Shown here piece by piece: positions 10,490-35,592 of a stretch of DNA of 37,564 bases (position 1 is the stretch's first letter; every line of letters starts with the position of its first letter). The notes under the pieces were generated by a model, which was given only the letters and a program-made list of their open reading frames with translations, searched no databases and was not told the origin of the DNA. Made by a program: the position numbers and the translations under genes. The DNA comes from a virus (lineage: Duplodnaviria; Caudoviricetes): positions 1 through 37,564 of the IMG/VR virus record IMGVR_UViG_3300036783_000187; one strand, written 5' to 3'.

Positions 10490-10540
10490 CCAGGTATCGG
10501 GCCGTCCCTTCGGGGGCGGCCCGGTACCTGGCCTTTTTTT
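10490..10540. terminator. Terminator between the convergent early arm and virion operon
   Basis: CCAGGTATCGGGCCGTCCC-TTCG-GGGGCGGCCCGGTACCTGG followed by a T-run. Confidence 0.85.
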
Positions 10541-10558
10541 GTGCCCAAAATCGGCCGA

Positions 10559-16445: not shown

Positions 16446-16847
16446 TGGGTCGATTTCCCTGGAGCACAGGGCCCCGGCCCGGGTGAACAGCCCCATCAAT
16501 TCCCCGCGCCCCCAGGTCGGCGATTCCCAGAGTTCGGTCCAGCCCGCCTTGTCGATAGCAGGCTCTCGGCACACCTTGGACAGCAGGGCCGGGGCGAAGG
16601 TGTTGATGTTGAACGAGGCTCCGGCCAACCGCTGTTCCGGCAGCGGCGGGTGCTCGGTGAGCAGGGCGTCGTATTCCATCGCCCCGATCGCGACATATAG
16701 GAAGCTCACCTGTTCCCCGTCGGCACCGAATGGCACGGAGAACTCGTCGCGATTGGCCTTCTTGGCCATCAGTGTCTGCAGAGTCGCCCGCTTGGCCTTG
16801 GTGCGCTGGTGCGCCCTGATTTCGACGTCGGGCACGGTAGGGGCCAT
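16425..16847 (-). CDS. Tail assembly chaperone (gpG-like)
   Basis: Between major tail and TMP; GAGAGGA RBS; YDALLTEHPP...FNINTFAPALLS. Confidence 0.8.
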   Translation of the reverse strand: MAPTVPDVEIRAHQRTKAKRATLQTLMAKKANRDEFSVPFGADGEQVSFLYVAIGAMEYDALLTEHPPLPEQRLAGASFNINTFAPALLSKVCREPAIDKAGWTELWESPTWGRGELMGLFTRAGALCSREIDPLPIYAG

Positions 16848-16915
16848 GGAATTCCTCTCGATGGCGCGCAGTAGCGCAGGCATCGAGCATATCCACGCGA
16901 ATCACCCAATCGATA

Positions 16916-17707: not shown

Positions 17708-17770
17708 GATCTAGCTCCTTGAATCGGTGACCGTTGCCGGACCTCTCGATTCAGTGTCTCGGGGCTGTCA

Positions 17771-18235
17771 TCACGCAGGAGCGATCTCCTTGGTCAGGTA
17801 CAGGGTGGTGCTGTCCTGCTGGTGCCAGAACACTGGATAGGTCACATTGATCTGGGTGGGCGCCCCGAAGGAGTCGGTCCGGACGTACTGGATCTTGTAG
17901 GAATCCGTGCCCAGCAACAGCTTTGAGAACCGCAGTTGGTTCAGCCCGCCACGCAGCTTGTCCGCCGTCCAGGACACCTGCTCCCGGCGGATGCCGAAGC
18001 ATTCCACCATGTACGGCATCCGCCAGTCCCCCTGGCTGGCGGCGAACGGTCCCTCGGCGTGGTCCGCGGTCAGCTCGGACAGCACCGCGAACGGCTCGTA
18101 AGTCGATCCGGGCAGGTTCGGCTGGCCGATCCAGCTGGCGTCCGGCAGCTCGCCGTCGCCGATGTCGATGCCGACCTCGCGCAGGGTGGTCAACACCAGC
18201 GTGGTCAGCGGGGAGCGCAGCAGCGGGGCGGTCAC
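17771..18235 (-). CDS. Tail terminator-like protein
   Basis: Immediately upstream of the major tail gene; IGDGELP..W...PFAVL...VECFG..REQ. Confidence 0.7.
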   Translation of the reverse strand: MTAPLLRSPLTTLVLTTLREVGIDIGDGELPDASWIGQPNLPGSTYEPFAVLSELTADHAEGPFAASQGDWRMPYMVECFGIRREQVSWTADKLRGGLNQLRFSKLLLGTDSYKIQYVRTDSFGAPTQINVTYPVFWHQQDSTTLYLTKEIAPA

Positions 18236-18528
18236 TTGTCGCCTCCGGACAGCAGCGATGCACCCTCGTCCAGGGCCCGGTCCGCCATCCGGTCGGCGAT
18301 CCTGGGCACCTGGTCGCTGCTCACGCCACCGGCCGAGGTACCGGCCCGCTTGCGGTGCTGGGCCAGCACGGAGCGCAGGGCCGCACCCGGTATCTGGACG
18401 GCGGCACCGGTCTTGGCCTCCACGCTGGCACTGGCCGTCAGCGAGGTAGCAAGACGGCTCGCCCCGGTGGTGGCGGCATACCCCAGCTCCTGGGCGTACT
18501 GGGACACGGAGATGCTCTGGTTCGCCAT
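18232..18528 (-). CDS. Head-tail or tail-completion region protein
   Basis: TGATG and GTGA couplings; synteny only. Confidence 0.6.
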   Translation of the reverse strand: MANQSISVSQYAQELGYAATTGASRLATSLTASASVEAKTGAAVQIPGAALRSVLAQHRKRAGTSAGGVSSDQVPRIADRMADRALDEGASLLSGGDK

Positions 18529-18995
18529 CAGCCGTTGCCGTCCCATTGGGCGGAGTAGCCCCAGGTGGTGCAGGACAGCCGCCGGGCGTCGCCGAAGTAC
18601 CCGCCGCCAGCGACCTCGACCACCCGCAGTGCGGCACCGGTGAGGGTGTCGTCCTGGCCGGCGTCGCGGATCAACACGATGTCGTCGCGCTGCGGCACCT
18701 GGGCACTCCACGGGATGGACACGGTGGTCTCCCTGACATTGATCTGGCCCGGACCCAGCGACAACGAGCCCTGCCCGGACACCGGGTGCACCCGGGCCTT
18801 GGCACCGATGGTGCCGATGACGCCGTCGGGTACCGGGTCGCCGTAGATCTGCTTGGCATTGGACAGCCCGCCCATCTTGCCGGTGACCGGATCCAGCACC
18901 CCGACCCCACCGCGCAGGATGGTGACCAGCCCGTCCATGTTGGACTCGGTGTACGTGCGGACCGCCGCGATCACGGCCGGATCGACGGTGGGCAT
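18528..18995 (-). CDS. Head-to-tail stopper (DUF6093-like)
   Basis: M..LVTILR...LDPVTG...IY...KARV...VSIPW...DDIV.I. Confidence 0.7.
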   Translation of the reverse strand: MPTVDPAVIAAVRTYTESNMDGLVTILRGGVGVLDPVTGKMGGLSNAKQIYGDPVPDGVIGTIGAKARVHPVSGQGSLSLGPGQINVRETTVSIPWSAQVPQRDDIVLIRDAGQDDTLTGAALRVVEVAGGGYFGDARRLSCTTWGYSAQWDGNG

Positions 18996-19891: not shown

Positions 19892-20893
19892 TCAGCTGAC
19901 GGCTGAGTTGATGAAGACTCCGCAGTCCTTGGAGACCTGCTTCATGGAATACGCCGCCTCGCCCTCGATCCGATCCGAGCGGGTCTTCAGGTCGGGGAAG
20001 TTGCTCATCGTCAGGCCGTACTTGTTCCCGGCCCCGTAGCCCTTCCAGTTGAACGTGTACCCGGCGCTGGGTTCCAGAAGGCCCGGGCGGGCGGGTGCGT
20101 AGCCGAACAGCATGGCCTTCGGGTTCATCATCCAGCTGTAGACCGCGGCCGCGTCCTGGGCCTTGCCGTCGTTGATCGACGGGCCGGTGGCCTGGCTGGC
20201 GTAGCCGATGTAGAGCTTGTCGATGCCGAAGAACTCGGCCACCAGCTCCTCGGTGACGACGCCCTTCTGGGTGTACTTGATCCGGTCCAGGATCGCCGGG
20301 TGGTTCTTGAGCGCCGACCACACGTCGGTGCCGATGACCATGAAGTTGGCCTTGCGGCCGACAGAGAGCCGGAAGGCGGTGAACCACGAGGTGGTGACCC
20401 GCAGTGGATCGGAGGCGGCCTGGTCCCATTGCAGGAACTGGGTCCCGGTCGGGCCGGCGGCGACCCCGGTGTACTCCAGGCCCCACTGACCGGTGGCGAA
20501 GTACTTTGCGGCCCACTGCTTGTCCTTGAGCAGCAGCAGGTGCTGGGTGATCAGCCGGGTGGCGTCGGAATCCAGGTTCCAGTTGGTGTCCGCGTTCGCC
20601 CTGGTCTGCGCGTCGATGTCGACGTGTGCGGCATAGACGTCGCAGTAGTAGTTGTCGCTCTGGTTCGACCAGCCGATGCCCGCCGACTCGGTACCGGGGG
20701 CGCGCTTCTGCGCGTCCGTGCGGCGCCAGTCCGACTTGGTGTACTTCCAGTACAGGTCGGATCGCTTGTCGCTCGGTATGGCCGGGAAGACCTTGTCGGC
20801 GATGAAGTCGTTCGGGTCCTGGAAGTAGGCGATCGAGACGTTGGTCAGCGGTCGGTCGATGTGCAGATCAGGACCGCCGGGAAGCTGTGGCAT
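19892..20893 (-). CDS. Major capsid protein (HK97 fold, lambda gpE-like)
   Basis: DLHIDRPLTNVSIAY...FIADKVFP...RAPGTE...LKNHPAILDRIKYT...GYTF signature; 333 aa. Confidence 0.9.
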   Translation of the reverse strand: MPQLPGGPDLHIDRPLTNVSIAYFQDPNDFIADKVFPAIPSDKRSDLYWKYTKSDWRRTDAQKRAPGTESAGIGWSNQSDNYYCDVYAAHVDIDAQTRANADTNWNLDSDATRLITQHLLLLKDKQWAAKYFATGQWGLEYTGVAAGPTGTQFLQWDQAASDPLRVTTSWFTAFRLSVGRKANFMVIGTDVWSALKNHPAILDRIKYTQKGVVTEELVAEFFGIDKLYIGYASQATGPSINDGKAQDAAAVYSWMMNPKAMLFGYAPARPGLLEPSAGYTFNWKGYGAGNKYGLTMSNFPDLKTRSDRIEGEAAYSMKQVSKDCGVFINSAVS

Positions 20894-21321: not shown

Positions 21322-22161
21322 TCAGAGCCGCTCGGCCCGGAGCGCGTCGTAGGCGCCCGGGTTGTTGTCGAAGAACTCGGTCATGGCGGTGGCGGTAGAA
21401 CCGTTGCCGCTCTTGGACACTCCGTCGGCGAGGTACTCCTCGATCTGCGCCATCGGGTCCTCGACCTCGGCGGCCCCGTCGTAACCCGCCTCGACGTAGA
21501 GCATCTCGCCGGATGCGGCCAGCGCCTTGTGGATCACCGCGCAGTCGTCGAAGGACAGCGCCTCGGCGGCCCGCATGAGTACCGGGCCCAACTCCTCCGG
21601 GTCGACCGGCACGTTGTACTCGGCGGCCTTGGAGATGTACTCGCGGGTCAGCCGCAGGTCCCGCTCGCTCTTGGCGATCTGCTCGGATTCGGCCAGCCGC
21701 GCCTCGGCGGCCTGGGCCCGCTTGGACAGGGTGGTGAATGCCTTGGACAGCACCACATCCCGGTCCTCCTCGCTGACCGCCTTGGACAACTCCTGGCGGA
21801 TCCCGGCGATCACCGCGTCGCCGGGGTCGTAACCGAAGGCCGACTTGCCGACCTCGACGAGTTCGTCATCGGGGGCGTAGTCGTAGTCGCCGTAATCGCC
21901 GTCAGTGCCGGGATCCCTGTCGTCGTCGTCGTCGAAGGTGACCTCGAACTGGTTGCCGTCTTCGTCCTCGAGGATGTCGCCCTCCTCGAACTCACTGAGG
22001 TCGATGGGATTCCCGGCCTCGTCGAAGTAATCGGGCATGCTTTCCTCCTGGTCAGCGCGCTTGGAGAACACAATCGAGGCGGATGTATTGGCGGCACGGT
22101 CGACCATGGAGACCTCGTCGATCTCCATGTCGGTGATCCGCTGAACTGGCCGCTTCGGCAC
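21322..22161 (-). CDS. Scaffolding protein with an N-terminal XkdF/HK97-protease-like strand
   Basis: GGAGG RBS; N-terminal ITDMEIDEVSMVDRAAN; acidic and coiled-coil body; C-terminal NPGAYD; internal AGGAGG-ATG start at 22038. Confidence 0.8.
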   Translation of the reverse strand: MPKRPVQRITDMEIDEVSMVDRAANTSASIVFSKRADQEESMPDYFDEAGNPIDLSEFEEGDILEDEDGNQFEVTFDDDDDRDPGTDGDYGDYDYAPDDELVEVGKSAFGYDPGDAVIAGIRQELSKAVSEEDRDVVLSKAFTTLSKRAQAAEARLAESEQIAKSERDLRLTREYISKAAEYNVPVDPEELGPVLMRAAEALSFDDCAVIHKALAASGEMLYVEAGYDGAAEVEDPMAQIEEYLADGVSKSGNGSTATAMTEFFDNNPGAYDALRAERL

Positions 22162-22207
22162 GTGGCCTCCCTCGGTTTAAGTCTCGGGGGGCTTGCAAGA
22201 CGCAGAG

Positions 22208-22699
22208 CTAGCTGTTCCTGCGGCGGTTGTACGCGTACACGCCGCCTCCGGTACCGGCGGCACCAACACCGGCGGCACCGCCGTAGATGATCTTCCGGTT
22301 CGTCGGCAATGCCCGGAGGCGACCGGCGGCCTGCCTGGTCTCGTGTGCCCCGATCGCTCCGGCCATCCGGACGTTGCCGGCCAGGGTGGCCCCGGCTGTG
22401 GTCGCGCCGCCCTTGATCGCCGACATTCCGGCCGTGGCGCGGTTGCCCGCGGTGCTGGCCGTGTCGGCCACCACCTTCCGGCCGCTCTTGTATGCCGCCT
22501 GTGCGGCTCCCCTGGCATGGCCGTAGGTCGCCGCGCCTTGCGCCTGGGCTCGCCCGACCGCCCCGCCGGCCCGGCTCGCACCCCGGATCGTGGCCACCTG
22601 CGCCCGGCCGACACCCCGGCGCACCGCCTTCGCTCCTGAGCTCCAGACACTCTTCTCGATCAACCGGTCGTCGTAGACGCCGAAAGCGGACATGCTCAC
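22208..22699 (-). CDS. Basic Ala/Gly-rich putative internal virion protein
   Basis: GGAGG RBS; SAFGV...IEKS leader; C-terminal Gly/Ala hydrophobic segment plus RRR tail. Confidence 0.75.
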   Translation of the reverse strand: MSMSAFGVYDDRLIEKSVWSSGAKAVRRGVGRAQVATIRGASRAGGAVGRAQAQGAATYGHARGAAQAAYKSGRKVVADTASTAGNRATAGMSAIKGGATTAGATLAGNVRMAGAIGAHETRQAAGRLRALPTNRKIIYGGAAGVGAAGTGGGVYAYNRRRNS

Positions 22700-22708
22700 A
22701 ACTGCCTC

Positions 22709-25700
22709 CTAGTAGGCGTACGAACGGCCGCCACGGTGACGGTCATAGGTGTGTACTCCGAGCGCGGCTGCGCCCAGTGCTGCTGTGCCGAGTGCCGAAC
22801 CCCGCGAGATCCGGCGCAGGCCTTTGGCTTTCCCGGCCAACTCGGTCGACCTGAGCTGGTGGGTGATCGCCTGGTTGTGGGCCGTGGTCGCCCGGGTGAT
22901 GTGGGCCGGGTTCTCTGTCGCCTTCTTGTGCGCCGCGACCAGTTGGTGCAGCTGGCCCTTGGTCGGCGCCGTCGCGCCCGGCTTGGCCAGGTCGCTCAGC
23001 GAGGTCTGCACCGCCCTGTGTTCCGGGCTCGCGGTCCGCATGGCGGCCAGGGTGTTCTGCAGGTCGAGGTGCGCCGCGTTCGCGTGCTCCATCGTGGCGG
23101 CCGCCTCCCGGTCGACGGCCCTCGCCTTCCGCCCGGTCTTGACCGCATGACCCCCGGCCAGGACCGCACCGCCGGACAGCGCACCGGAGTACACGGCCTG
23201 CCGGTTGTGCCGGTTCTTCTCCGGGTCGTACGCCTTGCCGAAGGACTGGAACTTCTTCTTGGCCTGATTGCCGGTCCGGGCGAACGACCCCCGGTTGTGC
23301 AGGTCGCTGTAGGCGCCCTCACCGGCCAAGGCGAGCCCGCCGGCAACCAGGGCCGCACCGCCCTTGGTGGACAGCCGCCCGATCCGGGCCGCCCGCCGGG
23401 CGATCTTGGTGGCGTGTTCGGCTTCGCCGATCTTCTTGGGGGAGCGAGTGATCCACTGCGCCATGCCCGGCGCCACGTCACTGTGCCGGGAGGCGACCAG
23501 ATAGCCCAGGCCCGCGGTACTCAATCCGGCAGTACGCCTGGATCTGGCCATCTCGGCCTTGCGGTTGTCACCGGGCAACTTGCCGTCACGTGGCGGGGGC
23601 TTGTCGCCGAAGTCCTTGCGCACCGTGCCCCGGTCGTTCGCCCGGCGCTGTGCACGGACCGCCCGGATGTACCCGGTCTCACCGGCCCGGCCCCACTGCC
23701 TCGCACTGCGGGCGAGGTTCTCCCCTCGGCCCTGCATCTTCTTGGCCTGATCGGCGACCTTGACGCGGGCCGGGCCGGTGAGTTCGGCGGCCTTCCGCTC
23801 GAGCCGGTGCGCGGAGTCCAGACGCCGGTTGCCCGCCTTCTGGCTGATCACCTTGAGGTGCTTGTACTCGGTGCGCATCGGGTGGCGGTACGGCCCGAGC
23901 GGGTGGATGCCTGCTCCTTGCTTGTTGGCCAATTGCCGGCGCAGCTCATTGGTCCCGATCACCGCGGCGCTCCCGGCTCCGGCTGCGGCAAGAGGTATGA
24001 CGAGCGGGCTCATCTTGGACACCGGGTCGACGAACAGCCGGGCCCGGTCGGCCGGGCTGTAACCCTTGGCCCGCTTGACCTTCCCGCGGATCGCGGTGGC
24101 GTAGTGGTAGCCCTTGGATGGCGCGTTCAGTGCGTCCATCGCCTGGCCGCGGCCCATCTTGTACTCGTACGGCTCGCCCGGGCGGCTGCGCATCTCCACC
24201 GCCAGGCGCCGGGTCTGCGGCTGGTAGCCCATCGCATGGATCGCCGAGGACTTGACCGGGTGCAGTTTGACCGCCGGCGGATGGATAGCCTGCTCTGCAC
24301 GCACCCGGATCTTCGGCCGGTCGGCGGCCTTGGTCACCAATTGCAGGATGGTGTGCGGCAGGGTCGGATGGGTGGCCAGCACCCGGTTCGCCGTGCTGAT
24401 TCCCTGCCCGTACATGTGCAACCCGCGGGCGATCGCCACCTTGGCTCCCTTGGAGTTGACCAACACCTTCTTGCCGGTCTTGACCGGGATGCCACCCGGC
24501 GCCGGGCCGGGACCGGTGGGGATGTTCCGCTTGGACACTTTGGCCCGGGTGCCCTTTCCATGTATGGAAAAACCTGTCCGGGCACCGGATTTCACCAGGT
24601 TCCACTGCTCGTCGTCGTTCACGTGGTAGCCGACCCACCAGCCGTGCGGCAGTGAGTCCGCAGGCAGGCCCATCTTCTCCAGCTTCTCCGGGGTGACCAC
24701 AAAGCTCTCGATCATGTCCGCGGTGTGCAGCGGCTCGTCGAACTTGGCCACCCGGCGGTGCATGTCACCGCCCTTGCGGGAGTCGATCACGTAGCGGTAG
24801 GCCGATTTCTCCATCTCCTCGATGGGCACGATGTCGCCCTGCAGGTCGACGATCTCCTGGCCGTTGACCGCCGACACCGAGGCCCAGCCGAACACCTGGC
24901 GCTTGTCGGCGTCGACCTTGGCGATCTCGCCGGTCCAGGTCACGTCCGCCAGGTCCGACTTGGCCACCCGGGCCGGCATGGCCCGGGGGCGCTTTTTGTC
25001 CCGGCTGCGAACCCCGGCCCGGGCGCCGGCGTAGAAACCGGCGGCGGGCGCAGTGGCCAAGGTGGCCACCGTGCCGGCCCCGATCAGTGCCGCGGTACGC
25101 GGGCTGGGAATCAGCCGACCGAGCTTCGCCGATGCCTCGGCGGCCGATCTGGTCGCATTCTCGACCTGCTCGGTGGTGCCCCGGGCGTGCTCGGTGGTGC
25201 GGTAGACGTTCCGCAGCGTCGCCCGGCCGCCCCGGTACACCGACCGGATGCTCTTGGACATCGGCTGGTACAGCCCGCTCCTGGTCCTCGGGTTGGCCGG
25301 GGAGAAGTTGAGCTTCGGGCGCTTGGCCCGCAGGCTCGGCACCCGCATCGGCAGGGAGTTCAGCGGCTTGAGTCGGAAGGCCTTGTTGATCTGCTTGTTG
25401 GCCTGGTTGAGCTGCTTGAGTTGGGCGTGCGCACCCATGGCATCCGAGGCCAACTCCACGCCGTGCAGCGTGAGCAGGCCGCCGCCGATGACACCGGCCG
25501 CCACTGCGGGCTTGACCCCCATCCGCTTCAGGGCTCCGGCGACCCTGCCGACCTTCGCCGCCGGCAGCTCGATCCCCTTGGCCTCCGCCATCCGGCGTTT
25601 CTGTTCTCCGATGCTGGCGGTGACCGCATGCAGCCCGGCGGCACCGGCAACCCCGGTCGCCGCCAGTCCGGTCTCGGCGACCCGCTTCTGCCGTTTGGCC

Positions 25701-25846
25701 TGGGCCGCTGTCATCGGCTGGTCGCTGTGCAGGTCGGAGGAACCCGGTGCGAACTTGGCGATCTCCCGCGGGTCGACGTCGCCGTAGATCGCCTCGGCGA
25801 TCCCCGCGAACACGGGATCGACGGCGGGCAGGGACCGAGGCGGCAT
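22709..25846 (-). CDS. Multidomain polyprotein containing an XkdF-type capsid maturation protease and a KTSC domain
   Basis: About 24531-24958: KRQVFGWAS, DLQGD, MH, IESF, GWWVG, GFSIHG (XkdF-type). About 24075-24270: VKSSAIHAMGY...LAVEM...YEY...APSKG.HY...IRG (KTSC). Several Gly/Ala hydrophobic helices. Confidence 0.85.
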   Translation of the reverse strand: MPPRSLPAVDPVFAGIAEAIYGDVDPREIAKFAPGSSDLHSDQPMTAAQAKRQKRVAETGLAATGVAGAAGLHAVTASIGEQKRRMAEAKGIELPAAKVGRVAGALKRMGVKPAVAAGVIGGGLLTLHGVELASDAMGAHAQLKQLNQANKQINKAFRLKPLNSLPMRVPSLRAKRPKLNFSPANPRTRSGLYQPMSKSIRSVYRGGRATLRNVYRTTEHARGTTEQVENATRSAAEASAKLGRLIPSPRTAALIGAGTVATLATAPAAGFYAGARAGVRSRDKKRPRAMPARVAKSDLADVTWTGEIAKVDADKRQVFGWASVSAVNGQEIVDLQGDIVPIEEMEKSAYRYVIDSRKGGDMHRRVAKFDEPLHTADMIESFVVTPEKLEKMGLPADSLPHGWWVGYHVNDDEQWNLVKSGARTGFSIHGKGTRAKVSKRNIPTGPGPAPGGIPVKTGKKVLVNSKGAKVAIARGLHMYGQGISTANRVLATHPTLPHTILQLVTKAADRPKIRVRAEQAIHPPAVKLHPVKSSAIHAMGYQPQTRRLAVEMRSRPGEPYEYKMGRGQAMDALNAPSKGYHYATAIRGKVKRAKGYSPADRARLFVDPVSKMSPLVIPLAAAGAGSAAVIGTNELRRQLANKQGAGIHPLGPYRHPMRTEYKHLKVISQKAGNRRLDSAHRLERKAAELTGPARVKVADQAKKMQGRGENLARSARQWGRAGETGYIRAVRAQRRANDRGTVRKDFGDKPPPRDGKLPGDNRKAEMARSRRTAGLSTAGLGYLVASRHSDVAPGMAQWITRSPKKIGEAEHATKIARRAARIGRLSTKGGAALVAGGLALAGEGAYSDLHNRGSFARTGNQAKKKFQSFGKAYDPEKNRHNRQAVYSGALSGGAVLAGGHAVKTGRKARAVDREAAATMEHANAAHLDLQNTLAAMRTASPEHRAVQTSLSDLAKPGATAPTKGQLHQLVAAHKKATENPAHITRATTAHNQAITHQLRSTELAGKAKGLRRISRGSALGTAALGAAALGVHTYDRHRGGRSYAY

Positions 25847-25868
25847 ACCCCAAGTCTGAAAAGGTGTT

Positions 25869-27581
25869 CTACACGCGGTCCGGCTTGAGGTAGATCTCCC
25901 GCAGCCCGATCTTGCCGGTCGGTGCGCCGTACCCGAATTCGTGAATCGCCGAGGTGTAGGTCGTGCTGTCCACGGTGTACCTGCCCCGCATGTCGCCCAT
26001 GTGGTCGTCCTCGTGCAGGCCGTACCCGAACGACATCACCGATGGGATCGGGGTGTCGTCCAGCGCGTCGGAACCGAGGGCATCCTCCAGCTCCTGGCGG
26101 AACAGATCACCCTCGTCACCGACCCAGGTCGGATCCATCCAGGTGATGTAGTCGGCGAAGGCGTCCAGGATGCCGGGTTCGGCATAGACGTCGACCTCGT
26201 TCTTCCTGCTGATCTTCGCCGCGCCGGTTTCCCTCATGTGCTGCTGGTCGGAGATGCGCTGCAGCAACACCTGCTTGTTGGTCGACGGGGGGTATCCGGC
26301 CCACTCGGAGATCGTCGACAGGTCCACCGGATCGAGCTGGACGGCGATCCGCATCGGATCGTCGTAGACCTCCCGCCAGATCGGAGTCGCCCTCCGCACC
26401 AGGTGGGACCATTCGTCACCACCGACGTCCTCGAAGCCCTGGGCGGCATCCCAGCCCGATCCGTGCTCGCTGAGCTGGATCGGATTCGTCCGGCCGTGGA
26501 TGTCGACGAGGTAGTCACTGATGGCGCTGAAGTTCACCGTCGCTCGCCGGTTCAGTTCGAAGTTCTTGTCCTGGAAGTAGTTCGCCACGTTCTGGTACGG
26601 CAGGAAGATGTTGCCGTTGCCCTCGACGGTCTCCGGTTTCAGCTTTGCCGGTTTCGCACTGGGCAGGTTCGCGCCCAGCAGGAAGATCTGGTGCGACCTC
26701 CCGACCGCTGCCGGTTTGGCGTAATGACTGTCCTTCGGCGCTCCATAGGGACTTTGCGCGTAATGGCTCTGCGCGTAGTGGCTCTCGCCGCCGTAATGGC
26801 TCTTGCCGCCGTAGTGGCTCTGCGCGTAGTGGCTCTTGTCGCCGTACGGACTCTGGTTCACGGCAGCGTAATGCGACGTTGAATCCGGAGCCTCCGGTGC
26901 TGCATCACCGAACAGCCGGTCCACGATGTCGCCACCCGAACCCGCCTCGGTCTTCACCTTCGGCGCACCACGGGCACCGGCGGTCCAGCGGCCGGTCTCG
27001 TCCCGGTTCTCCTGTGGGTCGTAGGCCTTGGACACCGGGATCGCCGGCAACGTGGACCAGGCTGCGGCCTCCCGGGTGCCGATCTTCTCGGCCTGGGCCA
27101 GCAGGGCCTTGGCGGCCATCTTCTTGTTGGCGGCCAGCAAGGGCGCGACCCCCTTGGCGTCGGGTGCGATCACCGTGCCGAGATAGCCGCGCATGGCCGC
27201 CTCGTCCAGGCCGTACCCGGCCACCGCCCGCTGCCAGGCGACGTCGGGATGCTGACCCCGGGAGGTCAGCACGTCCACCGCGTGCGCCAGCGCACTGGCG
27301 GCGTCGGCGTTCAGGTGCTCGCCGAGCTCACCGGTGTAACGGCGGGCCAGGTCCGCGTCGTCGACCGGCGACAGGGCCAGTAACCGGTGGGCCACCGGCT
27401 CGGCCATCGAGAGCCAGTCGGCGAGCTTGGCCCCGAAAGCCATCCGGGCCTGCCCGGCGATGTCCCCGAGGTGTGGTGTCTGCCCGGACAGGGCCCGTCC
27501 GACATGCTGCTGCATGGCCAGGATGGTGGCGGCCAGTTCGATCGCCACCTCCTTCGTGTCGGGGGCGGTGGCGACGGTCAT
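25869..27581 (-). CDS. Head-region protein: helical N-domain, VSKAYDP..RDETGRW motif, SHY(A/G) repeats and an acidic C-domain
   Basis: ATGA overlap at 27578-27581; 570 aa; C-terminal part paralogous to 8447-9502. Confidence 0.8.
   Translation of the reverse strand: MTVATAPDTKEVAIELAATILAMQQHVGRALSGQTPHLGDIAGQARMAFGAKLADWLSMAEPVAHRLLALSPVDDADLARRYTGELGEHLNADAASALAHAVDVLTSRGQHPDVAWQRAVAGYGLDEAAMRGYLGTVIAPDAKGVAPLLAANKKMAAKALLAQAEKIGTREAAAWSTLPAIPVSKAYDPQENRDETGRWTAGARGAPKVKTEAGSGGDIVDRLFGDAAPEAPDSTSHYAAVNQSPYGDKSHYAQSHYGGKSHYGGESHYAQSHYAQSPYGAPKDSHYAKPAAVGRSHQIFLLGANLPSAKPAKLKPETVEGNGNIFLPYQNVANYFQDKNFELNRRATVNFSAISDYLVDIHGRTNPIQLSEHGSGWDAAQGFEDVGGDEWSHLVRRATPIWREVYDDPMRIAVQLDPVDLSTISEWAGYPPSTNKQVLLQRISDQQHMRETGAAKISRKNEVDVYAEPGILDAFADYITWMDPTWVGDEGDLFRQELEDALGSDALDDTPIPSVMSFGYGLHEDDHMGDMRGRYTVDSTTYTSAIHEFGYGAPTGKIGLREIYLKPDRV
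26715..26877 (-). repeat. Coding repeat S-[HP]-Y-[AG] x9
   Basis: SHYA x5, SHYG x2, SPYG x2 in the translation. Confidence 0.9.
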
Positions 27582-30500
27582 GTGCTGCTGCCGCCCAGGC
27601 CGAGCATCGCCGTCTGCTCCGGGGTGAGGCCGAAGATCGAGATCTGGTTGGTCGGCGCCCCGGCCGCGGCCGCATCTCCTGCCGCCTTGGCCTTGTTCTG
27701 GGCCTTGAGCCAGTTGCGCCGCAACTGGGCGGCCTGCGCCAGTGCGGTGGCGTCCCGCTTGTCCTGGGCCAGCTGATCGGGGGCAGGTCGGCGGCCCGCG
27801 TTGATACTGCGCATGTTGGCACTGTCGGTGGCCAGTAACCGCTGGCGCAGCGGCTCGGTGTTCGATCGGAACGCCGGGTCGTCGATCGCCGGCAGTTCCC
27901 CGGCCTTGACCAGGCGCTGGATGTCGGAGTTGTCGTGGTAGGCACTCTCGACGTCCTCGACACTGGCCCGCTCCGGGTCGAAGGCGATTCCCGGGAAGTC
28001 GTGGTCCCGGTCGACCCCGCGCACCAGCTCGCCCAGGTCGGTGGGCAATGGAGTCGCCTTCTCGGCGGCGAGCCCCGTCTTGCCCCTGTTCTTGTATGTC
28101 CGTTCCTTGGACTCGTCCACCGCGAAGACCTTTTCCTTCCCGCTGGACATGCTCAGGATGTCGTCCATCAGGGCGTCCAGTTCGCTCGGCGGTTTCGCCT
28201 CGAGTTCGGCCTTGTCCTTGGCGCCGTAGAAGATCTTGAGCGCACCGTCCGGGAACTTGGGATCTGCAACGTCCTTGCGAATGTTGCGGAACGCGCTCCT
28301 GGTCCCGTCGAAGTTGGCCTCGGGGCCGAACGTTTCCTTGTCCCACAACTCATCCAGCATCGCCAGGCTGGCCGCCCGCTTGGATTCGGCCTCGTTGGCC
28401 TTCGAGCCGGTCGAGGAGTACCGGCCGCCGGTGCTGCCGGTCTCGTCCTTGTCGTCCTTGGCCTTGCTCTTGTCCTCGATGTCGTGCAGCTTGCCGCCGT
28501 GCACCCGGAAGTTCTGGTACCGGGTACTGGACGCCTCCACCTTGCCCTGGCCCACCCGGTCGTTGAAGTAACCGGCCTGCGCCGCCTGCGGCCGGTTGAA
28601 CCGGGGTGCCACGTACCCGGTGTCGGGGGCGGTCTCCCGGCTCCGCTCGGTCAGTGCCTCGACGCCCGCACCGCCGCGCCAGGCGGTGTAGTGGGTGTTG
28701 ATGTAGTACGGGAACTGCTCCTGCAGAGCGCTCAGTGCGGCGGCATAGCCGGCACCGTCCAGCCGGAGTGCCCGGGCCTTCTTCGCACTTTCGTCGTTCG
28801 CCGCTCGCATCGCCCGGTCGAACTGGTCGGTTCTGCCGAGCATCCCGGCGACGATGGCGACATGGCCCGCGTCCAGCTCCCGGGTGGGCCGGTCGCCGAA
28901 GATCTGCTGGCGCACCGCATTGCGGTACTCCTCCTCGGAGATCACCGGCCGGACTCCCATGGTGGCAGCCTGCTGCAGACTGGCCTGGTACTCCTTCTTG
29001 GCCCCCGCGTTGATGGCCTCGTTGACCAGGTCGGCCGGTGCCAACTCCCGGGCGTTGCCGGTCTTGCGGCGCATCGCCTCGTCACCGAGCCAGCGCACCG
29101 CCGCCGCGTTGGTCTCGGCGACCGAGAGCTGCGGGTTCTCCTGTTCGGTCGTCCGCAGTTCCCGCAGCCGGTTCTTGAACGCCGCCGACTTGGTGTCCGG
29201 CTCGAACCGGCGCGCCTGCTCGGCCAGCTCGTTCATCCGGCTCGGTGAGATACCGCCGCGGCTGACCTGCTCGGAGCGCACCGCGTCCAGCAGCTGGCCG
29301 TAGCGGGCGACCATCCGGGCCGCCTTATCGTTGAACCGCCGGCCGCCGCGCAGGTTCTTGTCGAAGTCGACGGTGAAGACCCCGCTGTGGCTGACCACGG
29401 TCAGCGACTTGGCCCCGCTGACCAGTCCGGTGTAGATGTCCTCGGTGCTGGGACCGCCGAAGGTCCGGGTCCGGATGTACTCGCCGCCCTTGAGCGACTT
29501 GAGGTGCCGCAGGTTGAACGGCAGGTACCAGTCGTCGGCGAACCCGACGCTCTGGTGGGTGATCTGCCCGTTGGCGCCGATGATGATGCCCTCGCTGGGC
29601 GGGATCACCCCGGACTTGCGCTGCAGCTCGTTCAGATCCGGGCTGGGCAGCTGGCGGTGGAAGTACCGCAGCACCGGCCCCGGATCCCACTCCCCATCTC
29701 TGGCGCCTTCGACACCGCCGACCGCCGCGTCCCGGACATCCTGGCTGGACCGGCCGGGCTGGCGCAGCTGGCCGAACGCCCGGGTCAGGGTCGGGTCGGG
29801 GGTGCGCTCGGTGCCCCGGTACCGGTAGGCCATCCGATCGGCCGTCGGGCCGAGCACCTTTTGTGCCTCGGGGCCGAGCTGGCCGATGTGGTTGGCCACC
29901 GCCAGCGCGTACTGCAGGTGCTCCGGCGCGGCCGGGCCCAGGCTCTCCTGCAGCAGTTTCCCGCCGTGCTCCAGCCGACTGAAGGCCCGGGCCGCCGAGG
30001 AGAAGTTCTCGTTCGGGGTGACCTTCTGCCGCTGCTGGTTGTACTCGCGCAACTTGCCGGGGTTGAGCACGCCCTCGTGCAGATAGGCGGCACCGGCACC
30101 CAGGCGCGGCGCACCGGCCGCGGCCAATGCGTCGAAGGTGGCGCCGGGAGCTCCGATGCTCGGCACCACCGACACCGCCGCCGAGGTGATCCGGTCGCGG
30201 GGCTTGAGCTTCTCCGCGATATTGGGCCGCGGGCCGCTGACCGGCACCTGGACCTCGCGCTCGTCACTGCCGTTGACGATCTTCAGGTGCAGCACCGCAC
30301 CCAGCTCGGGATTCTGGAAGTTACCGACCATGTCCATGATCTGGCCGTAGGCCTGCTGGTAATGGGCCACGTCATCGGGGTGGCCGCTGGTCGCCGGGAT
30401 GCCGAGCCGATTCAGGTGGTCCTTGTCGGTGATCGGGTCGGCGTTCGGGTCGGTCCGGATCTCCTTGTGCTCCTGGACGAACCGGCCGTGCTCCCGGTGC

Positions 30501-30979
30501 CGGGCCTGGACATACCGCTGCCGGTCGGCGGCACTGAAGGCGAACGCCTTGCCGATCTGCACCAGGCAGGCGATCTCGTGGGTGTTGTCCGCGCCGCGCC
30601 GGGCCTTGCTCACCGCGGTGCGGGTGTAGTACCGCTTGAGCGTCTCGGCCCGCTCGGCAGCCTGGTCGGTGGCCATCTTCGCCAGCTCGCCGCGGTGCGC
30701 CAGCAGGTCGTGGTAGACCGCGTCGGCGACCAGGATCCGGCCGAAGACCAGCGCGGCGTCCGGATCCATCGCGGTCATCGCCTTGTAGACGGTGTCGGCG
30801 GCGAGTTGGTCGAACGCCGGATCCGCGCTCTTGTGCACCCGGGCCGGGAGCCGGTGCAGCCTCTTCTTCGAGGTGGCGCCGGCGAACTCCCGGCCGACCT
30901 TGGACGGGATGCCCAAGGTCGAGTTGCCGTGGGCAGCCGCCTGCATGGCGCGGAACTGGGCCTGACTCTTGACGGGCAT
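27578..30979 (-). CDS. Large head-region (MuF-position) protein with a degenerate JAB/MPN-like domain
   Basis: 1133 aa; N-terminal MPVKSQAQFRAM...GIPSKVGREF...LPARV module; SEGIIIG..G...LKG..IRTRT..GPSTEDI at about 29363-29600. Confidence 0.75.
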   Translation of the reverse strand: MPVKSQAQFRAMQAAAHGNSTLGIPSKVGREFAGATSKKRLHRLPARVHKSADPAFDQLAADTVYKAMTAMDPDAALVFGRILVADAVYHDLLAHRGELAKMATDQAAERAETLKRYYTRTAVSKARRGADNTHEIACLVQIGKAFAFSAADRQRYVQARHREHGRFVQEHKEIRTDPNADPITDKDHLNRLGIPATSGHPDDVAHYQQAYGQIMDMVGNFQNPELGAVLHLKIVNGSDEREVQVPVSGPRPNIAEKLKPRDRITSAAVSVVPSIGAPGATFDALAAAGAPRLGAGAAYLHEGVLNPGKLREYNQQRQKVTPNENFSSAARAFSRLEHGGKLLQESLGPAAPEHLQYALAVANHIGQLGPEAQKVLGPTADRMAYRYRGTERTPDPTLTRAFGQLRQPGRSSQDVRDAAVGGVEGARDGEWDPGPVLRYFHRQLPSPDLNELQRKSGVIPPSEGIIIGANGQITHQSVGFADDWYLPFNLRHLKSLKGGEYIRTRTFGGPSTEDIYTGLVSGAKSLTVVSHSGVFTVDFDKNLRGGRRFNDKAARMVARYGQLLDAVRSEQVSRGGISPSRMNELAEQARRFEPDTKSAAFKNRLRELRTTEQENPQLSVAETNAAAVRWLGDEAMRRKTGNARELAPADLVNEAINAGAKKEYQASLQQAATMGVRPVISEEEYRNAVRQQIFGDRPTRELDAGHVAIVAGMLGRTDQFDRAMRAANDESAKKARALRLDGAGYAAALSALQEQFPYYINTHYTAWRGGAGVEALTERSRETAPDTGYVAPRFNRPQAAQAGYFNDRVGQGKVEASSTRYQNFRVHGGKLHDIEDKSKAKDDKDETGSTGGRYSSTGSKANEAESKRAASLAMLDELWDKETFGPEANFDGTRSAFRNIRKDVADPKFPDGALKIFYGAKDKAELEAKPPSELDALMDDILSMSSGKEKVFAVDESKERTYKNRGKTGLAAEKATPLPTDLGELVRGVDRDHDFPGIAFDPERASVEDVESAYHDNSDIQRLVKAGELPAIDDPAFRSNTEPLRQRLLATDSANMRSINAGRRPAPDQLAQDKRDATALAQAAQLRRNWLKAQNKAKAAGDAAAAGAPTNQISIFGLTPEQTAMLGLGGSST

Positions 30980-30981
30980 GC

Positions 30982-31845
30982 TTACCTCAGCTTCATTCCG
31001 CGTTCGACCAGGCGGGCGACCCGGTGGTAGGCCCCGTGCGCCGCCAGTTCCGCCTTGGGTACCCGGAACTCTTTCGGCAGTGTCTTGTTGTCTCGTTTCA
31101 CTTGTCGCAACACCTTCGGGGTTCCGATCGCACCACTCCTGCGATAGATACCGGCCCGGGACACCGTGTCGGCCCTGGACTCTTCGCCCATATTGCGTAC
31201 CGGCTTCAGGTCATGGACCGGTTTGCCCTTGAGCGAGGCGTGCGCTATCTCGTGATTGAGAATGCGGGGCCCGGTAATGCCTTTCGCCTGGGCGTCCTCA
31301 TGGATGTTCCAGTGTCCGGTTTCGTGCAGAACCGGTCCGATGGCCACATGCCCACGCCCGCCCGTCAGTGGATGTGCCCCCAGGGCACCGGCGACGACTT
31401 GGGGGTGCAGATCCGGAACATGGTGAATCACGATGGGATGCGGTGACTTGGCGGCCAGCTTGGGATCGATGCTCCGGTCCAGCGTGGCCTTCATTTCGGG
31501 GTTGACACTGGGGCCGTAATGGATGTTGGGGTGCACCGCCGACGGAGTGTGATGCGTCGGATCAATTTCGTGCTTCATTGCGGTAGTTATTTGTTTGGCA
31601 CCCGCATCCTCGCGCATTGCGTAGGCATGGTGGACATAGGCATGCCCGAGTGACCGGTTCGCCGCGCTGGCCCTTTCCGGCGGGTTATTGACATCCCGAG
31701 CCATCTGACGGTCGATGACAAGATTGCGGACTTTCTCTTTCTTCTTGTCGCCCAGCTTCCTCGCCCGCTTGAACTTGCCGGGTGCAACCTCCGACTTGGC
31801 GAAATGCACCACTCCGAACGCACTGAAGCCACCTCGAGTGCTCAT
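30982..31845 (-). CDS. Zincin-type metallopeptidase-like putative virion cargo protein
   Basis: SAFGVVHFAKS leader; LNHEIAH followed by GEESRAD; His-rich; lower GC than its flanks. Confidence 0.65.
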   Translation of the reverse strand: MSTRGGFSAFGVVHFAKSEVAPGKFKRARKLGDKKKEKVRNLVIDRQMARDVNNPPERASAANRSLGHAYVHHAYAMREDAGAKQITTAMKHEIDPTHHTPSAVHPNIHYGPSVNPEMKATLDRSIDPKLAAKSPHPIVIHHVPDLHPQVVAGALGAHPLTGGRGHVAIGPVLHETGHWNIHEDAQAKGITGPRILNHEIAHASLKGKPVHDLKPVRNMGEESRADTVSRAGIYRRSGAIGTPKVLRQVKRDNKTLPKEFRVPKAELAAHGAYHRVARLVERGMKLR

Positions 31846-33419
31846 CGGCTGCCTACTCCCCTGCCCTTGGCGGTGGTCTTCGGCTTGGCCGCGGGTGCCG
31901 CGAGCTCCTTCTTGGCAGTGGCCGCCTCGAGTTGCTGGGTCTGGTCGGTGCCGGCGATCTGCTGGTCGCCCTGCACCAGGCCCTGCTGGCCGGTCATCGC
32001 CTGCTGCTGCATCTGCAGCGATTCCATCTTCTGCTGGGCCAGCGCCATGATCGCCTGCTGGCGCATCTGCACGTCGTGAATCTCGATGATCTGCGGGTCG
32101 ACCTTGGGTAGCTGCGCGGCGTCGCGGATGAACTGTTCCAGCTCGCCGTCGGGGAACCAGGTCATCCCGGCACTGGCGGTGGCCTGGATGAACGCGGCCA
32201 GCTGGGCCAGGTCCGGCGGGTTCACGTTGTTGGGCACCAGCTTCGGCAGGTCGTCGGGCTGCATCCCGTTGAGCTTGAACAGCTGCGGGATGGCCTTGCG
32301 GTTGAACGGGTCGGCGAAGGCCTTGGCGATGCCGTTCACCCCGGTCTCGAAAATGCCGGACTTGTCGGTGTGCAGTGCGTAGCTGGATCCGGAGTTCTCG
32401 TGCCCGGTCATGATGAAGTCCGCCATCACCGACATCAGCATCCGGGTCTCGTACCGCTGGATGATCCCGCCGACGTCGAACTGGCGGCTGCCGCCGGAGG
32501 TGAGCAGCTTGAAGTCGTACTGCAGGTTCCGATCATCGTCGTAGACCAGCGGCCAGACCAGGCCCTCCTGCTCGTTGCGACGGACCGCGGTGACCGCCTT
32601 CTTCACCGCCTCCAGCATCTTGGCGTCGTCACTGTTCGGCCGGGGGTTCAGCACGTTCGGCGGCACGAAGGCCACCGGCAGGCCGGTCAGGTCGCGCTCG
32701 ACACCGACCGCCTCGATCTCCTCGAATCGTTTGGTCATGAACCAGGACCGGTAGGCAGTGCGCAGCAGGCTGCGGCCCTCGGGCGAGCCCTTGTTCAGGT
32801 CCGGCCGCAGCAGCAGGCAGCGGCGCATGCCCAGCACCCGCTTGGCGTAACTCGGCGCCGGCATCTGCACCATCGCCTCGACGTCGCCGTTCTCGGCGAA
32901 CACCCAGCGCAGCAGGGACTCCTGGCCGCGGATGGGCATCTTGCGCCAGCCCAGGCGGCCGTCGTTGTACTTGCTCTTATGCCGCGGGTCGGGGCTCCAC
33001 AGGCCCAGTCGGCGCTTGTAGACCATCTCGTGCACGGACCAGCCGTAGACCAGCATCGAGCAGGCCTCGGAGATGAAGTCGGCGAACGTCTCCTCCATGT
33101 CGTCGAGGCATTCCTCGAAGAAGTCCGCGTTCTGCTTGTCCGCCGGTTTGCTGGAAGCCGGTTCCACCCGCCACTCGATCTGCCGGAGCAACTGCTTCAC
33201 CGTGTAGATCCAGGCGCCCAGGATGGCCGAGTTGTCGCTCATCTCCCGGTAGACCTTGACCGCCTGCCGGCCCCGCAGCTGCGGCAGGAACTCGTCGGTG
33301 ATGTACCCGCCGGAGCGGGACAGGCCGGTCGCGCCGACCTCGAGCATCGGCGAGAGATTCTTGATCTCGTCGGTGATGTCGGCGTCGAGCTGGTCCAGGT
33401 TGTACCCAGGTCGCGTCAC
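31842..33419 (-). CDS. Portal protein
   Basis: EFLPQLRG...YREM.DN, YGWSVHEMVYK, PEGRSLLR.AYR.W, GVERDL.GLP; follows the terminase. Confidence 0.92.
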   Translation of the reverse strand: MTRPGYNLDQLDADITDEIKNLSPMLEVGATGLSRSGGYITDEFLPQLRGRQAVKVYREMSDNSAILGAWIYTVKQLLRQIEWRVEPASSKPADKQNADFFEECLDDMEETFADFISEACSMLVYGWSVHEMVYKRRLGLWSPDPRHKSKYNDGRLGWRKMPIRGQESLLRWVFAENGDVEAMVQMPAPSYAKRVLGMRRCLLLRPDLNKGSPEGRSLLRTAYRSWFMTKRFEEIEAVGVERDLTGLPVAFVPPNVLNPRPNSDDAKMLEAVKKAVTAVRRNEQEGLVWPLVYDDDRNLQYDFKLLTSGGSRQFDVGGIIQRYETRMLMSVMADFIMTGHENSGSSYALHTDKSGIFETGVNGIAKAFADPFNRKAIPQLFKLNGMQPDDLPKLVPNNVNPPDLAQLAAFIQATASAGMTWFPDGELEQFIRDAAQLPKVDPQIIEIHDVQMRQQAIMALAQQKMESLQMQQQAMTGQQGLVQGDQQIAGTDQTQQLEAATAKKELAAPAAKPKTTAKGRGVGSR

Positions 33420-35118: not shown

Positions 35119-35592
35119 ATGACCTTATTCGGCGAAGCCCGGATCTATTACGAAGCACATGTCGACGACGACACCAACGAATGCCTGATCTGGCCGTTCG
35201 GAACCAGTACCGATGGTTACGGGAAGGTCCGGATCGGCAGTCGCACCTGCAGAGTTCACCTACTTGCCTGCGAGCGACACCACGGCCCCAGGCCGCAGGG
35301 CATGTACGCGCTTCATCTCCCGGTGATCTGTCACAACCAGAAATGCTTCAACTGGCAACACCTGTACTGGGGGACCCAGAAACAGAACATGGCCGACCGG
35401 GTGACCGACGGAAACGGCTGGATTCAAGATGGCGAGAACAATTACAACGCCAAGATGACCTGGGCTCTGATCAACGAGATCCGTGCACGTTATGCCGCAG
35501 GCGGAATCACCCAAGGGGCACTTGGCGCCGAATACGGAATGGACCGTCGCCGCGTAAGTCTGATCGTCACTCGACGCGTATGGCAGTCCTAG
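35119..35592 (+). CDS. HNH homing endonuclease with C-terminal HTH, antisense to the virion operon
   Basis: CLIWP...GYG...VH...H...CHN..CFN..HL..GT.KQN..D; GEN..NAKMT...IR...LGAEYGM. Confidence 0.88.
   Translation: MTLFGEARIYYEAHVDDDTNECLIWPFGTSTDGYGKVRIGSRTCRVHLLACERHHGPRPQGMYALHLPVICHNQKCFNWQHLYWGTQKQNMADRVTDGNGWIQDGENNYNAKMTWALINEIRARYAAGGITQGALGAEYGMDRRRVSLIVTRRVWQS

Follow-up and report, generated by a model that had tools for sequence, protein, structure and literature searches.

Putative lysine cut sites and a shared peptide tag suggest a head cargo system in an uncultured phage family

The window, the whole 37,564-nucleotide stretch of viral DNA that we analyzed, carries a head region that runs from the portal gene to the major capsid gene (Table 1). 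The first-pass annotation had counted about 9.6 kb and five genes between portal and scaffold, and all five were recovered on the minus strand. For the gene ending at 25869, the likeliest start is the ATG at 27581 (570 aa) rather than the start of the 825-aa open reading frame. A scan for promoters and terminators gave nothing exceeding shuffled sequences.

Table 1. Head-region features in window coordinates; a slash within a motif marks the putative cut position.
Feature	Position	Strand	Basis or content
Portal protein, upstream boundary	31842..33419	-	Pfam Portal_Mu, E 1.9e-27; PHROG 113
Five genes between portal and scaffold	22208-31845	-	ORFs of the window
Tagged candidate cargo, predicted zincin metallopeptidase	30982..31845	-	SAFGVVH tag; FAK/S at K17; HEIAH aa 198-202; EE aa 221-222
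SAFG[VI] tag and lysine site of the 30982 gene	31795..31824	-	Sequence and family statistics
Conserved 1133-aa protein (JAB-type)	27578..30979	-	Site-rich N terminus; candidate deaminase/JAB-fold domain lacking the metal histidines
Degenerate MuF-type head protein	25869..27581	-	Positional homologs with Pfam Phage_Mu_F
1045-aa polyprotein	22709..25846	-	Basic Gly/Ala-rich modules, XkdF protease body, and KTSC module, joined at hydrophobic-x-K sites
XkdF-type serine protease body, aa 297-439	24530..24958	-	PF14550; alignment of 33
KTSC module, aa 507-611, VTK/A to VSK/M	24014..24328	-	PF13619
Tagged candidate cargo, MSAFGVYDDRLIEK/S then basic Gly/Ala-rich protein, pI 11.7	22208..22693	-	Sequence
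Scaffold, contains VGK/SAFG	21322..22161	-	Alignment; precedes decoration and capsid genes
Scaffold aa 1-34, strand predicted to complete the protease fold	22060..22161	-	Conservation, Pfam, predicted complex
Major capsid protein	19892..20893	-	PHROG 1005, E 2.5e-82

These proteins had been said to carry repeated hydrophobic-x-K motifs, and every example named is present in the sequence. We counted the motif as [VIFLM]xK[SA], a form picked after inspecting the window sequence. Six head-region proteins hold 23 such motifs among 194 lysines, compared to a shuffle mean of 8.2 (P = 0.001); 13 other late proteins hold 13 (9.3 in shuffles), 17 early or other proteins hold 3 (2.9 in shuffles), and the head proteins differ from the rest of the window by Fisher's test (P = 0.016). 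The proposed head-region enrichment thus stood for the motif with Ser or Ala but not for plain hydrophobic-x-K (38 in the window head proteins, 40.8 in shuffles). Tested one by one, the scaffold was clearly enriched (7 versus 0.45; P = 0.0005), with 10 of 10 lysines within hydrophobic-x-K and 7 of them followed by Ser or Ala; the 22709 protein was marginal (7 versus 3.3; P = 0.049), and no other window head protein was significant. The major capsid protein, an internal negative control, has zero hydrophobic-x-K-[SA]. In the 22709 polyprotein the hydrophobic-x-K sites lie at K31, 155, 198, 296, 439, 506, 611, 744, and 871. Those reported to bracket the protease (VAKS and VSKR) and the KTSC region (VTKA and VSKM) do enclose the respective Pfam matches, at aa 307-434 and 532-589. 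Three motifs inside the protease domain (IAKV 310, MEKS 347, and LVKS 419) are probably not cut.

The protease belongs to PF14550 (E 3.6e-15; 56.5 bits versus a cutoff of 24). H363 and S427 are invariant in the alignment of 33 XkdF sequences, and we take them to be catalytic by analogy with HK97 gp4; this alignment found nothing meaningful among PDB sequences. The XkdF body is without one strand, and a protease-like strand opens the scaffold, a feature overlooked in the earlier reading. This strand is conserved in 48 of 48 relatives, and the sole Pfam match of scaffold aa 5-35 is a weak one to positions 127-157 of 165 of Peptidase_S78 (E 0.045). A predicted complex of protease and strand scored 0.61, compared to 0.01 for the best control; 116 of 157 solved pairs attain the mark for this score, compared to 2 of 215 mismatched pairs. 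Runs agreed in at least 68% of contacts, which were centered on S427, and partner pLDDT was at least 54; the complex may owe its pass to resemblance to single-chain proteases with the same fold whose structures are solved. Body and strand are thus predicted to pair up and complete the protease, and from such pairing it would follow that the enzyme is anchored, and perhaps active, solely on the scaffold.

As an out-of-sample set we used 48 relatives with <85% scaffold identity, across which counts are not independent because the relatives are kin. The ratio of observed to shuffled motifs was 12.3 in their scaffolds (338 of 648 lysines in a motif), 3.0 in XkdF proteins, 3.8 in a stopper-like gene (14 versus 3.7), 0.38 in the capsid protein, and 0.85 in the portal, which is also somewhat poor in hydrophobic-x-K (0.75). 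Tape measure proteins of the relatives show the motif 1.6- to 1.9-fold (1.87), and equally so for its arginine version; together with the lack of significance of most single window proteins, this would fit a compositional artifact of helical Ala/Lys-rich proteins. However, scaffold K[SAG] is 9.4-fold enriched versus 0.62 for R[SAG], and the tag-linked sites described below number 114 versus 10 for arginine. The lysine/arginine comparison has largely refuted the artifact, to which we give almost no credence. When all lysines were put into an unbiased positional logo, composition and conserved positions drowned out any motif.

Alignment of homologous loci, a check that the first-pass annotation had proposed, indicates that modules shuffle at the sites. 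At ≥80% identity, 27 of 32 breakpoints fall within 6 aa of a site (background, 0.31), as do 9 of 9 with the protease flanks excluded (background, 0.29). The signal is weaker at relaxed identity, with 43 of 79 (background, 0.33) and, without protease flanks, 12 of 22 (background, 0.31). For the window 22709 protein alone it is not convincing, since only 7 of 17 distinct BLAST breakpoints lie near a site (background, 0.25); compared to one relative (L001), its modules at aa 440-506 and 612-744 are absent exactly between lysine sites. Among proteins with the RD..GR[FW] motif, a site also stands ahead of it in all 17 of the JAB type (19 complete) and in all 26 MuF proteins (30 complete), each against a background of 0.17. 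Beyond these positions the sites are avoided: hydrophobic-x-K is at 0.54 of expectation in the distal part of JAB-type proteins and 0.59 in that of MuF proteins, compared to 1.06 and 0.94 for hydrophobic-x-R, and the corresponding values in mature tagged cargo are 0.56 and 1.31. This avoidance argues that the mature parts survive. The literature searched yielded no XkdF cut site determined by measurement. Enrichment in relatives, shuffling at sites, specificity for lysine, and the scarcity of sites in mature parts all favor the protease-site reading, and hydrophobic-x-Lys followed by Ser, Ala, or Gly is very probably the cut site of this phage's XkdF-type protease.

A second feature that had been overlooked is a SAFG[VI] tag that opens or closes unrelated genes. 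In 49 loci, 163 tag matches lie on the late-gene strand and 1 on the opposite strand. Hydrophobic-x-K occurs within 14 residues of 114 of 117 N-terminal tags (background, 0.097), whereas the arginine version does so for 10 of 117; ahead of C-terminal tags, hydrophobic-x-K is present in 29 of 31 cases. In an overlapping collection, all 83 N-terminal tags have a site. Among 10 whole records, 9 genomes carry tags, all 47 matches keep to one strand per genome, and a reversed-pattern control gave 1 match. To judge by sequence, unrelated late proteins thus share a short peptide that a putative head-protease site would separate from them. The tag, fenced off in this way, strengthens the earlier idea of capsid cargo, and tag-driven packaging of unrelated proteins into the prohead is likely. 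Two of the five genes of the portal-scaffold interval carry the tag in the window, so the three untagged ones need another loading route. We rejected the generalization that every gene from protease to scaffold encodes cargo, as ValentiniPuff has 46 such genes with 0 tags and 3 early sites.

The shared stretch might instead be a DNA-level recombination or expression cassette with the peptide as a by-product, given that this is precisely where modules come and go and that many tags overlap gene starts. However, tag codons vary synonymously, with serine encoded as both AGY and TCN, C-terminal copies exist, and the lysine-specific avoidance within cargo is a signal at the level of protein, all of which makes a cassette of this kind very improbable.

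Tagged cargo is highly variable across relatives. Of 123 candidate cargo proteins, 119 had no Pfam match at E ≤ 0.001, and an atlas search with the 22208 protein gave a best score of 0.86, to unnamed viral clusters, which is below the 0.9 bar and a lead at most. All 86 mature tagged cargos have a pI of >10 (median, 11.3), with 31% Gly plus Ala. Such basic proteins, almost none with a known domain, could be accessory scaffold or core proteins whose sites serve disposal, being cut and lost, or inert DNA-neutralizing filler with no action in the host; lysines of T4 internal proteins contact packaged DNA, according to PMC3012670. The mature parts avoid sites, the cargo is variable, and intact-looking zincin motifs occur in several genomes; each of these observations argues against disposal or filler, which we consider unlikely.

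A strongly hydrophobic 19-residue stretch occurs in 29% of the 86 mature cargos, compared to 8.5% of 223 untagged downstream proteins. On this ground the tag could be an export or membrane leader that a host peptidase or the phage zincin cleaves, for action late in the producing cell or at the virion surface; PMC5512222 proposes zincins as processing enzymes of polyvalent proteins. But the tag is found at either terminus, the same lysine motif saturates the scaffold of the window and the scaffolds of six named phage records, and zincins occur in only a few relatives, whereas the XkdF body was found in 37 of 48, a count mostly limited by contig ends. We therefore regard a leader as highly unlikely.

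The first-pass annotation had also proposed a set of effector modules: a metallopeptidase, a KTSC module, a JAB-like domain, an SHY-repeat domain, and putative membrane-active peptides. This set is supported only in part, the first two members being plausible. In the 30982 protein, which has no Pfam, NCBIfam, or PDB sequence match, the HEIAH residues H198, E199, and H202 and the glutamates E221 and E222 are invariant in 6 homologs; its model is of low confidence (pLDDT 52), and the top nine structural matches, although weak (Z ≤ 5.7), are zinc peptidases. KTSC reaches 29.8 bits with PF13619 as an isolated module (cutoff, 25) and 24.3 bits in the full protein; free-standing KTSC gave 2 matches among 47 shorter candidates, both also with XkdF.

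For the JAB-like domain, the model leans toward the proposed fold, and the metal histidines are missing. Of 8 hydrophobic-x-K in the 27578 protein, 5 fall in its site-rich N-terminal ~144 aa, and R-x-x-x-GRF follows the last site. A deaminase/JAB-fold domain is modeled near aa 457-541 (pLDDT 67.5). The model matched BaDTF3 deaminase (Z 8.2; rmsd 2.7 over 83 aa), RadC (Z 6.0; rmsd 3.0 over 77 aa), and JAMM1 (Z 5.3), with no Foldseek match at E ≤ 0.001. The JAB/MPN zinc site is His-x-His...Asp; here E463 and D514 are kept, but an R503-x-R505 that is invariant in 12 sequences stands in place of His-x-His.

The 25869 protein has VSK/A at K185, an AYDP..RD..GRW motif, an SHY-repeat linker at aa 236-288, and an acidic C-terminal domain. 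Pfam gave no match to it, nor was PF04233 with its C-terminal Cys motif found, but because positional homologs that match PF04233 align to its N-terminal part, we regard it as a degenerate MuF protein. Comparison of linkers led us to reject the SHY repeat as a conserved effector domain; it is a lineage-variable linker. The best atlas score of the C-terminal domain was 0.84, to ART-PolyVal clusters, again below the 0.9 bar and a lead at most. ART-like and ParB-like stretches in relatives were read by eye, without Pfam or NCBIfam support, from motifs presumed to be diagnostic. That most cargo consists of enzymatic effectors is unlikely. Most of it, basic and Gly/Ala-rich, fits best with internal or ejection proteins that associate with DNA, and true effectors would be a minority (zincin, KTSC, and, in relatives, the ParB-like and ART-like domains).

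We put the probability that lysine cut sites and a SAFG[VI]xH tag load, and then free, head cargo at roughly 0.65. In the scheme of cleavage, packaging, and injection that we infer from these sequences, the tag beside a lysine site would bring unrelated proteins into the prohead; there the protease would take off the tag, cut up the scaffold, and separate polyprotein modules. The 22709 protease body would begin by pairing with the scaffold's opening strand. The site-saturated scaffold would then be cut small and leave the head, and the mature parts, which avoid the sites that fence tags and propeptides, would stay. In the last and weakest step, the surviving proteins would accompany the DNA into the host; we give injection an even chance. 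Neither the scaffold nor the JAB-like domain had a match among 50,697 phage records, and the family is therefore considered uncultured; 88 pattern matches of the scaffold alignment in bacterial genomes yielded 0 confirmed. A tag of 6 to 8 residues at either end and a protease assembled only with a scaffold-donated strand may, tentatively, form a self-timed, freely shuffled delivery cassette whose parts are unrelated to those of T4, carried by phages of a widespread, uncultured family that probably infect actinobacteria. We found no tagged, lysine-coded head cargo system in the literature searched.

In T4, the head protease gp21 removes the CTS at a site that ends in Glu. The window family tag would work like the CTS, as a short targeting peptide on unrelated proteins, but with different parts: the site ends in Lys, the protease is of PF14550 and not gp21-type (S77), the tag has another sequence and is N- or C-terminal, and polyproteins also link cargo to the protease. 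The T4 system has been shown by experiment, whereas that of the window is predicted from sequence. HK97 has a one-chain protease and a scaffold fused to the capsid protein, and we know of no tagged cargo set in it. Its cut between Lys103 and Ser104 (PMC10275583) resembles the candidate site, and scaffold aa 5-35 weakly match the C-terminal part of Peptidase_S78. According to PMC3012670, diverse T4 internal proteins share only the short CTS that brings them into the scaffolding core. For SPN3US and phiKZ, PMC10052503 describes A-x-E sites, a P3-x-P1 motif with Ser preferred at P1', and multiply cut propeptides, both short (20-24 aa) and long. The window family appears similar in its single P3-x-P1 motif, Ser at P1', and short and long propeptides with multiple putative cuts. 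Those phages, however, are jumbo myoviruses with Glu at P1 and cleaved capsid and portal, whereas the window family has genomes of ~76-83 kb, siphovirus-type tail genes, and a capsid protein that avoids the full motif. Iyer et al. 2017 (PMC5512222), in the portion available, describe virion-linked multidomain proteins with MuF, zincin, ParB, ART, and RadC-like JAB domains, which are proposed to be processed and injected. The likeness lies in the domain set; processing is ascribed there to zincin autoproteolysis, that portion describes no lysine code or shared tag, and window family cargo is probably for the most part non-enzymatic.

These results assign to the XkdF head proteases, which have had little study, a specificity that can be tested; they also provide a sequence rule to predict which late proteins of no family ride inside the virion and point to many candidate injected proteins outside known families. 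They suggest that mid-sized phages came by T4-style loading of tagged cargo a second time, from different components, and a tag that works at either end of a protein could find use in delivering proteins into bacteria. The same protease body occurs in HHTV-2 (gp38), Roseobacter phage CRP-6 (gp55/gp54), and Arthrobacter phages Laroye (gp18/gp24) and Ottawa (gp87/gp98). Read by eye, HHTV-2 gp38 has the same strand fused to the protease body; the strand is on the scaffold in CRP-6 (E 2.4e-9), with weak or visual matches in Laroye, Ottawa, and RHph. The SAFG tag was absent from the three cultured actinophage regions examined. Laroye, Ottawa, and CRP-6 are cultured phages in which the cut site and the scaffold-completed protease are testable, and the scaffolds of the six named phage records carry 8 to 12 motif sites, compared to 1.1 to 2.1 expected.

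The first-pass annotation had proposed that hydrophobic-x-K motifs, usually followed by Ser or Ala, are processing sites in the head-region proteins, and every motif that it listed was found in the window sequence. The pattern [VIFLM]xK[SA] occurs 23 times in six head-region proteins versus 8.2 expected, 13 times in other late proteins versus 9.3 expected, and 3 times in early proteins versus 2.9 expected. Since the pattern was picked post hoc from the window sequence itself, and protein by protein was clearly significant for the scaffold only, we examined it in relatives. A scaffold-alignment search, with the best 80 of 122 matches kept, gave 79 loci; from 84 loci with a scaffold, we retained 49 (the window and 48 relatives; scaffold identity, <85%), with genes called by a custom heuristic. 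Among the 48 relatives, which are kin, so that homologous sites enter the counts repeatedly, the expected enrichment was seen: observed/shuffled ratios were 12.3 for the scaffold, 3.0 for the XkdF protein, 1.55 for protease-to-scaffold genes, 1.30 for MuF, 1.27 for JAB-type proteins, 1.87 for the tape measure, 3.8 for stopper-like proteins (14 matches), 0.85 for the portal, and 0.38 for the capsid protein. The scaffold excess is lysine specific (K[SAG], 9.4-fold; R[SAG], 0.62). For the tape measure, lysine (1.58) and arginine (1.39) are both in excess, which looks like helix periodicity.

Shuffling of modules at the sites, a check put forward in the first-pass annotation, was evident among 153 distinct head-region proteins. 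At ≥80% identity, 27 of 32 internal breakpoints were no more than 6 residues from a site (background, 0.31), as were 88 of 145 at ≥60% identity (background, 0.28); with protease flanks removed, the counts near a site were 9/9, 12/22, and 43/79. A close relative (L001) lacks residues 440 to 506 and 612 to 744 of the window protein encoded by gene 22709 (named, like the others, by its lower coordinate), and sites bound both segments. In parts expected to survive cleavage, hydrophobic-x-K occurs at 0.54 to 0.59 of expectation, versus 0.94 to 1.31 for the arginine version. JAB-type proteins fall into a site-rich front (102 versus 58) and a site-poor remainder (117 versus 217), with the boundary at an RD..GR[FW] motif, which is conserved and is found after the MuF domain, too. 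Overall, hydrophobic-x-K behaves like a protease site: lysine specific, located at joints, and avoided in surviving parts.

A short tag that had been overlooked, [SDN][AP]FG[VIL], is present in 46 of the 49 loci, with 163 copies on the late strand versus a single copy on the opposite strand. A site lies shortly downstream of 114 of 117 N-terminal tags and shortly upstream of 29 of 31 C-terminal tags (background chance at this distance, 0.097); 15 tags are internal. Ten whole records held 47 matches, confined to one strand within each genome, with one record having none. A collection scan, overlapping the 49-locus tag set, yielded 117 stretches; of the 85 distinct tags found, 83 are N-terminal, and each of these is followed by a site. 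Tagged genes are also found downstream of the capsid gene and near the portal and terminase genes. In the window, genes 30982 and 22208 begin with the tag, and the scaffold has SAFG directly after a site. These comparative sequence tests give good support to a real tag/site system. A separate mobile module, PHROG 16759, begins 13 proteins from three classes and is possibly a second targeting leader.

Scaffold residues 1 to 34 are strongly conserved, and their sole Pfam match, below the cutoff, is to the end of an HK97-type protease profile. By eye, a similar strand precedes the protease body within a single chain in HHTV-2 gp38; in CRP-6, one starts the gene next to the protease body. Of 80 bacterial-genome loci, 44 carry the strand on an ORF of its own, and none carries it on the same ORF as the body; in the other 36, it was not detected. 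The predicted complex of protease body and scaffold strand scored 0.61 (best control, 0.01), on a scale whose mark was passed by 116 of 157 solved pairs and 2 of 215 mismatched pairs; contact agreement was at least 68%, partner pLDDT was at least 54, and contacts were centered on the invariant serine. The model supports pairing of the two but falls short of demonstration, because the two parts of a divided fold may pass through resemblance to solved structures. The protease might inactivate itself by cutting within the body, at the loop site tabulated below (VAK/A, VSK/A, or VTK/A in relatives).

The cargo had been described as a set of packaged effector modules. Mature tagged proteins have a pI of >10 in 86 of 86 cases and are Gly/Ala-rich, with a strong hydrophobic stretch in 29%. 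Among 123 candidate cargo proteins of ≥100 amino acids, 4 had Pfam matches (two sub- or near-cutoff, one ferritin, one M15 peptidase). The 30982 product retains a zincin motif, and tagged zincin-like relatives of it recur in other genomes; the KTSC domain is real. The 27578 domain called JAB-like is predicted to have a deaminase/JAB-type fold but lacks the canonical metal site. The 25869 product is a degenerate MuF protein, and its SHY repeats, put forward as an effector module, have counterparts of the DRY, DRW, DPF, or SAF type in relatives. Because the cargo is basic and Gly/Ala-rich, with few domain candidates, most of it resembles internal or ejection proteins, a few products may be enzymes, and the effector claim should be narrowed accordingly. 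The stand-alone 25869 homolog (see table) has no MuF part and no tag. Its nonrepeat part is matched by a profile from which it had been left out (E, 7.8e-7), and the homology was seen in a pairwise comparison, too.

Gene layout, motif statistics, the tag, module shuffling, and conserved protease residues are established. In the mechanism that we propose, a scaffold strand is predicted to complete the protease (strand complementation), the tag would load cargo into the head, cleavage at the sites would precede exit of the scaffold, and the cargo would be kept in the head and then injected. We give this whole scheme odds of about two in three. The CTS system of T4 (PMC3012670) and SPN3US maturation (PMC10052503) are working parallels, alike in mode of action; the window system belongs to neither, differing in protease family, in Lys instead of Glu, and in having a tag at either end. 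Precedents exist for a K/S cut (HK97; PMC10275583), for XkdF as a proposed head-processing peptidase (PMC7824862), and for effectors (MuF and polyvalent proteins; PMC5512222). Among the matches listed by full-text literature searches, largely of nonsubscription journals, none described the tag, a site for XkdF, or the split protease; supplements on polyvalent proteins could hold related architectures.

Two proteins of cultured phages, Laroye gp18 and Ottawa gp87, offer test cases. Each reads as a leader, an FAK site, a putatively 2H-like domain that carries two HxT motifs, another site, and an XkdF-like body (weak profile matches). ValentiniPuff has 46 small genes ahead of its scaffold, with no tag or leader sites, and 12 sites in the scaffold; an XkdF body was not detected within the stretch examined. 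Pfam and NCBIfam gave no confirmation of the ART-like and ParB-like stretches tabulated for three relatives.

Coordinates of features in the window and in compared loci
Locus	Coordinates	Strand	Feature
Window	8447-9502	+	Stand-alone homolog of 25869 distal half including SHY repeats, in opposite-strand early cluster
Window	9807-10487	+	Mrr-type endonuclease where two gene blocks meet
Window	16916-17707	-	Tail tube protein with additional N-terminal ~100-aa domain, missing in most relatives
Window	24743	-	22709 residues 366-368, hydrophobic-x-K site (VAK/F) in variable loop right behind invariant His
Window	30836-30979	-	First 48 aa of 27578 protein (PHROG 16759, MPxKSxxQ)
Window	35119-35592	+	HNH endonuclease directly upstream of terminase, on opposite strand to it
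Window	35995-37245	-	Kelch-repeat protein upstream of terminase
L004 (ValentiniPuff)	249-18707		Small genes ahead of scaffold
L005 (Laroye); L006 (Ottawa)	11382-12503; 12868-14007		gp18 and gp87, annotated aldolase and RNA ligase
L014	3546-5180		DUF7218 after protease
L014; L043; L096	8568-9068; 8517-8951; 4763-5236		Tagged/site-bounded stretches, ART-like and ParB-like motifs by eye
L023	3808-4239		Ferritin-like gene following protease gene
L072	3006-5189		SLOG (YAcAr, below cutoff) in MuF protein, flanked by two sites
L083	2508-6809		AAA ATPase joined to JAB-type protein
L096	564-2492		Portal ORF with tag match within last ~80 residues

The window, a virus record of 37,564 bases, has a GC content of ~65%, and its minus-strand genes encode terminase, portal, five other proteins, scaffold, a decoration-type protein, capsid protein, tail tube, and tape measure. 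One Microlunatus-binned contig has the same head layout, with no exact tag match. An actinobacterial host is likely, given this contig and given that the closest cultured capsid and portal proteins are from Microbacterium and Arthrobacter phages (identity, 40% and 44%).
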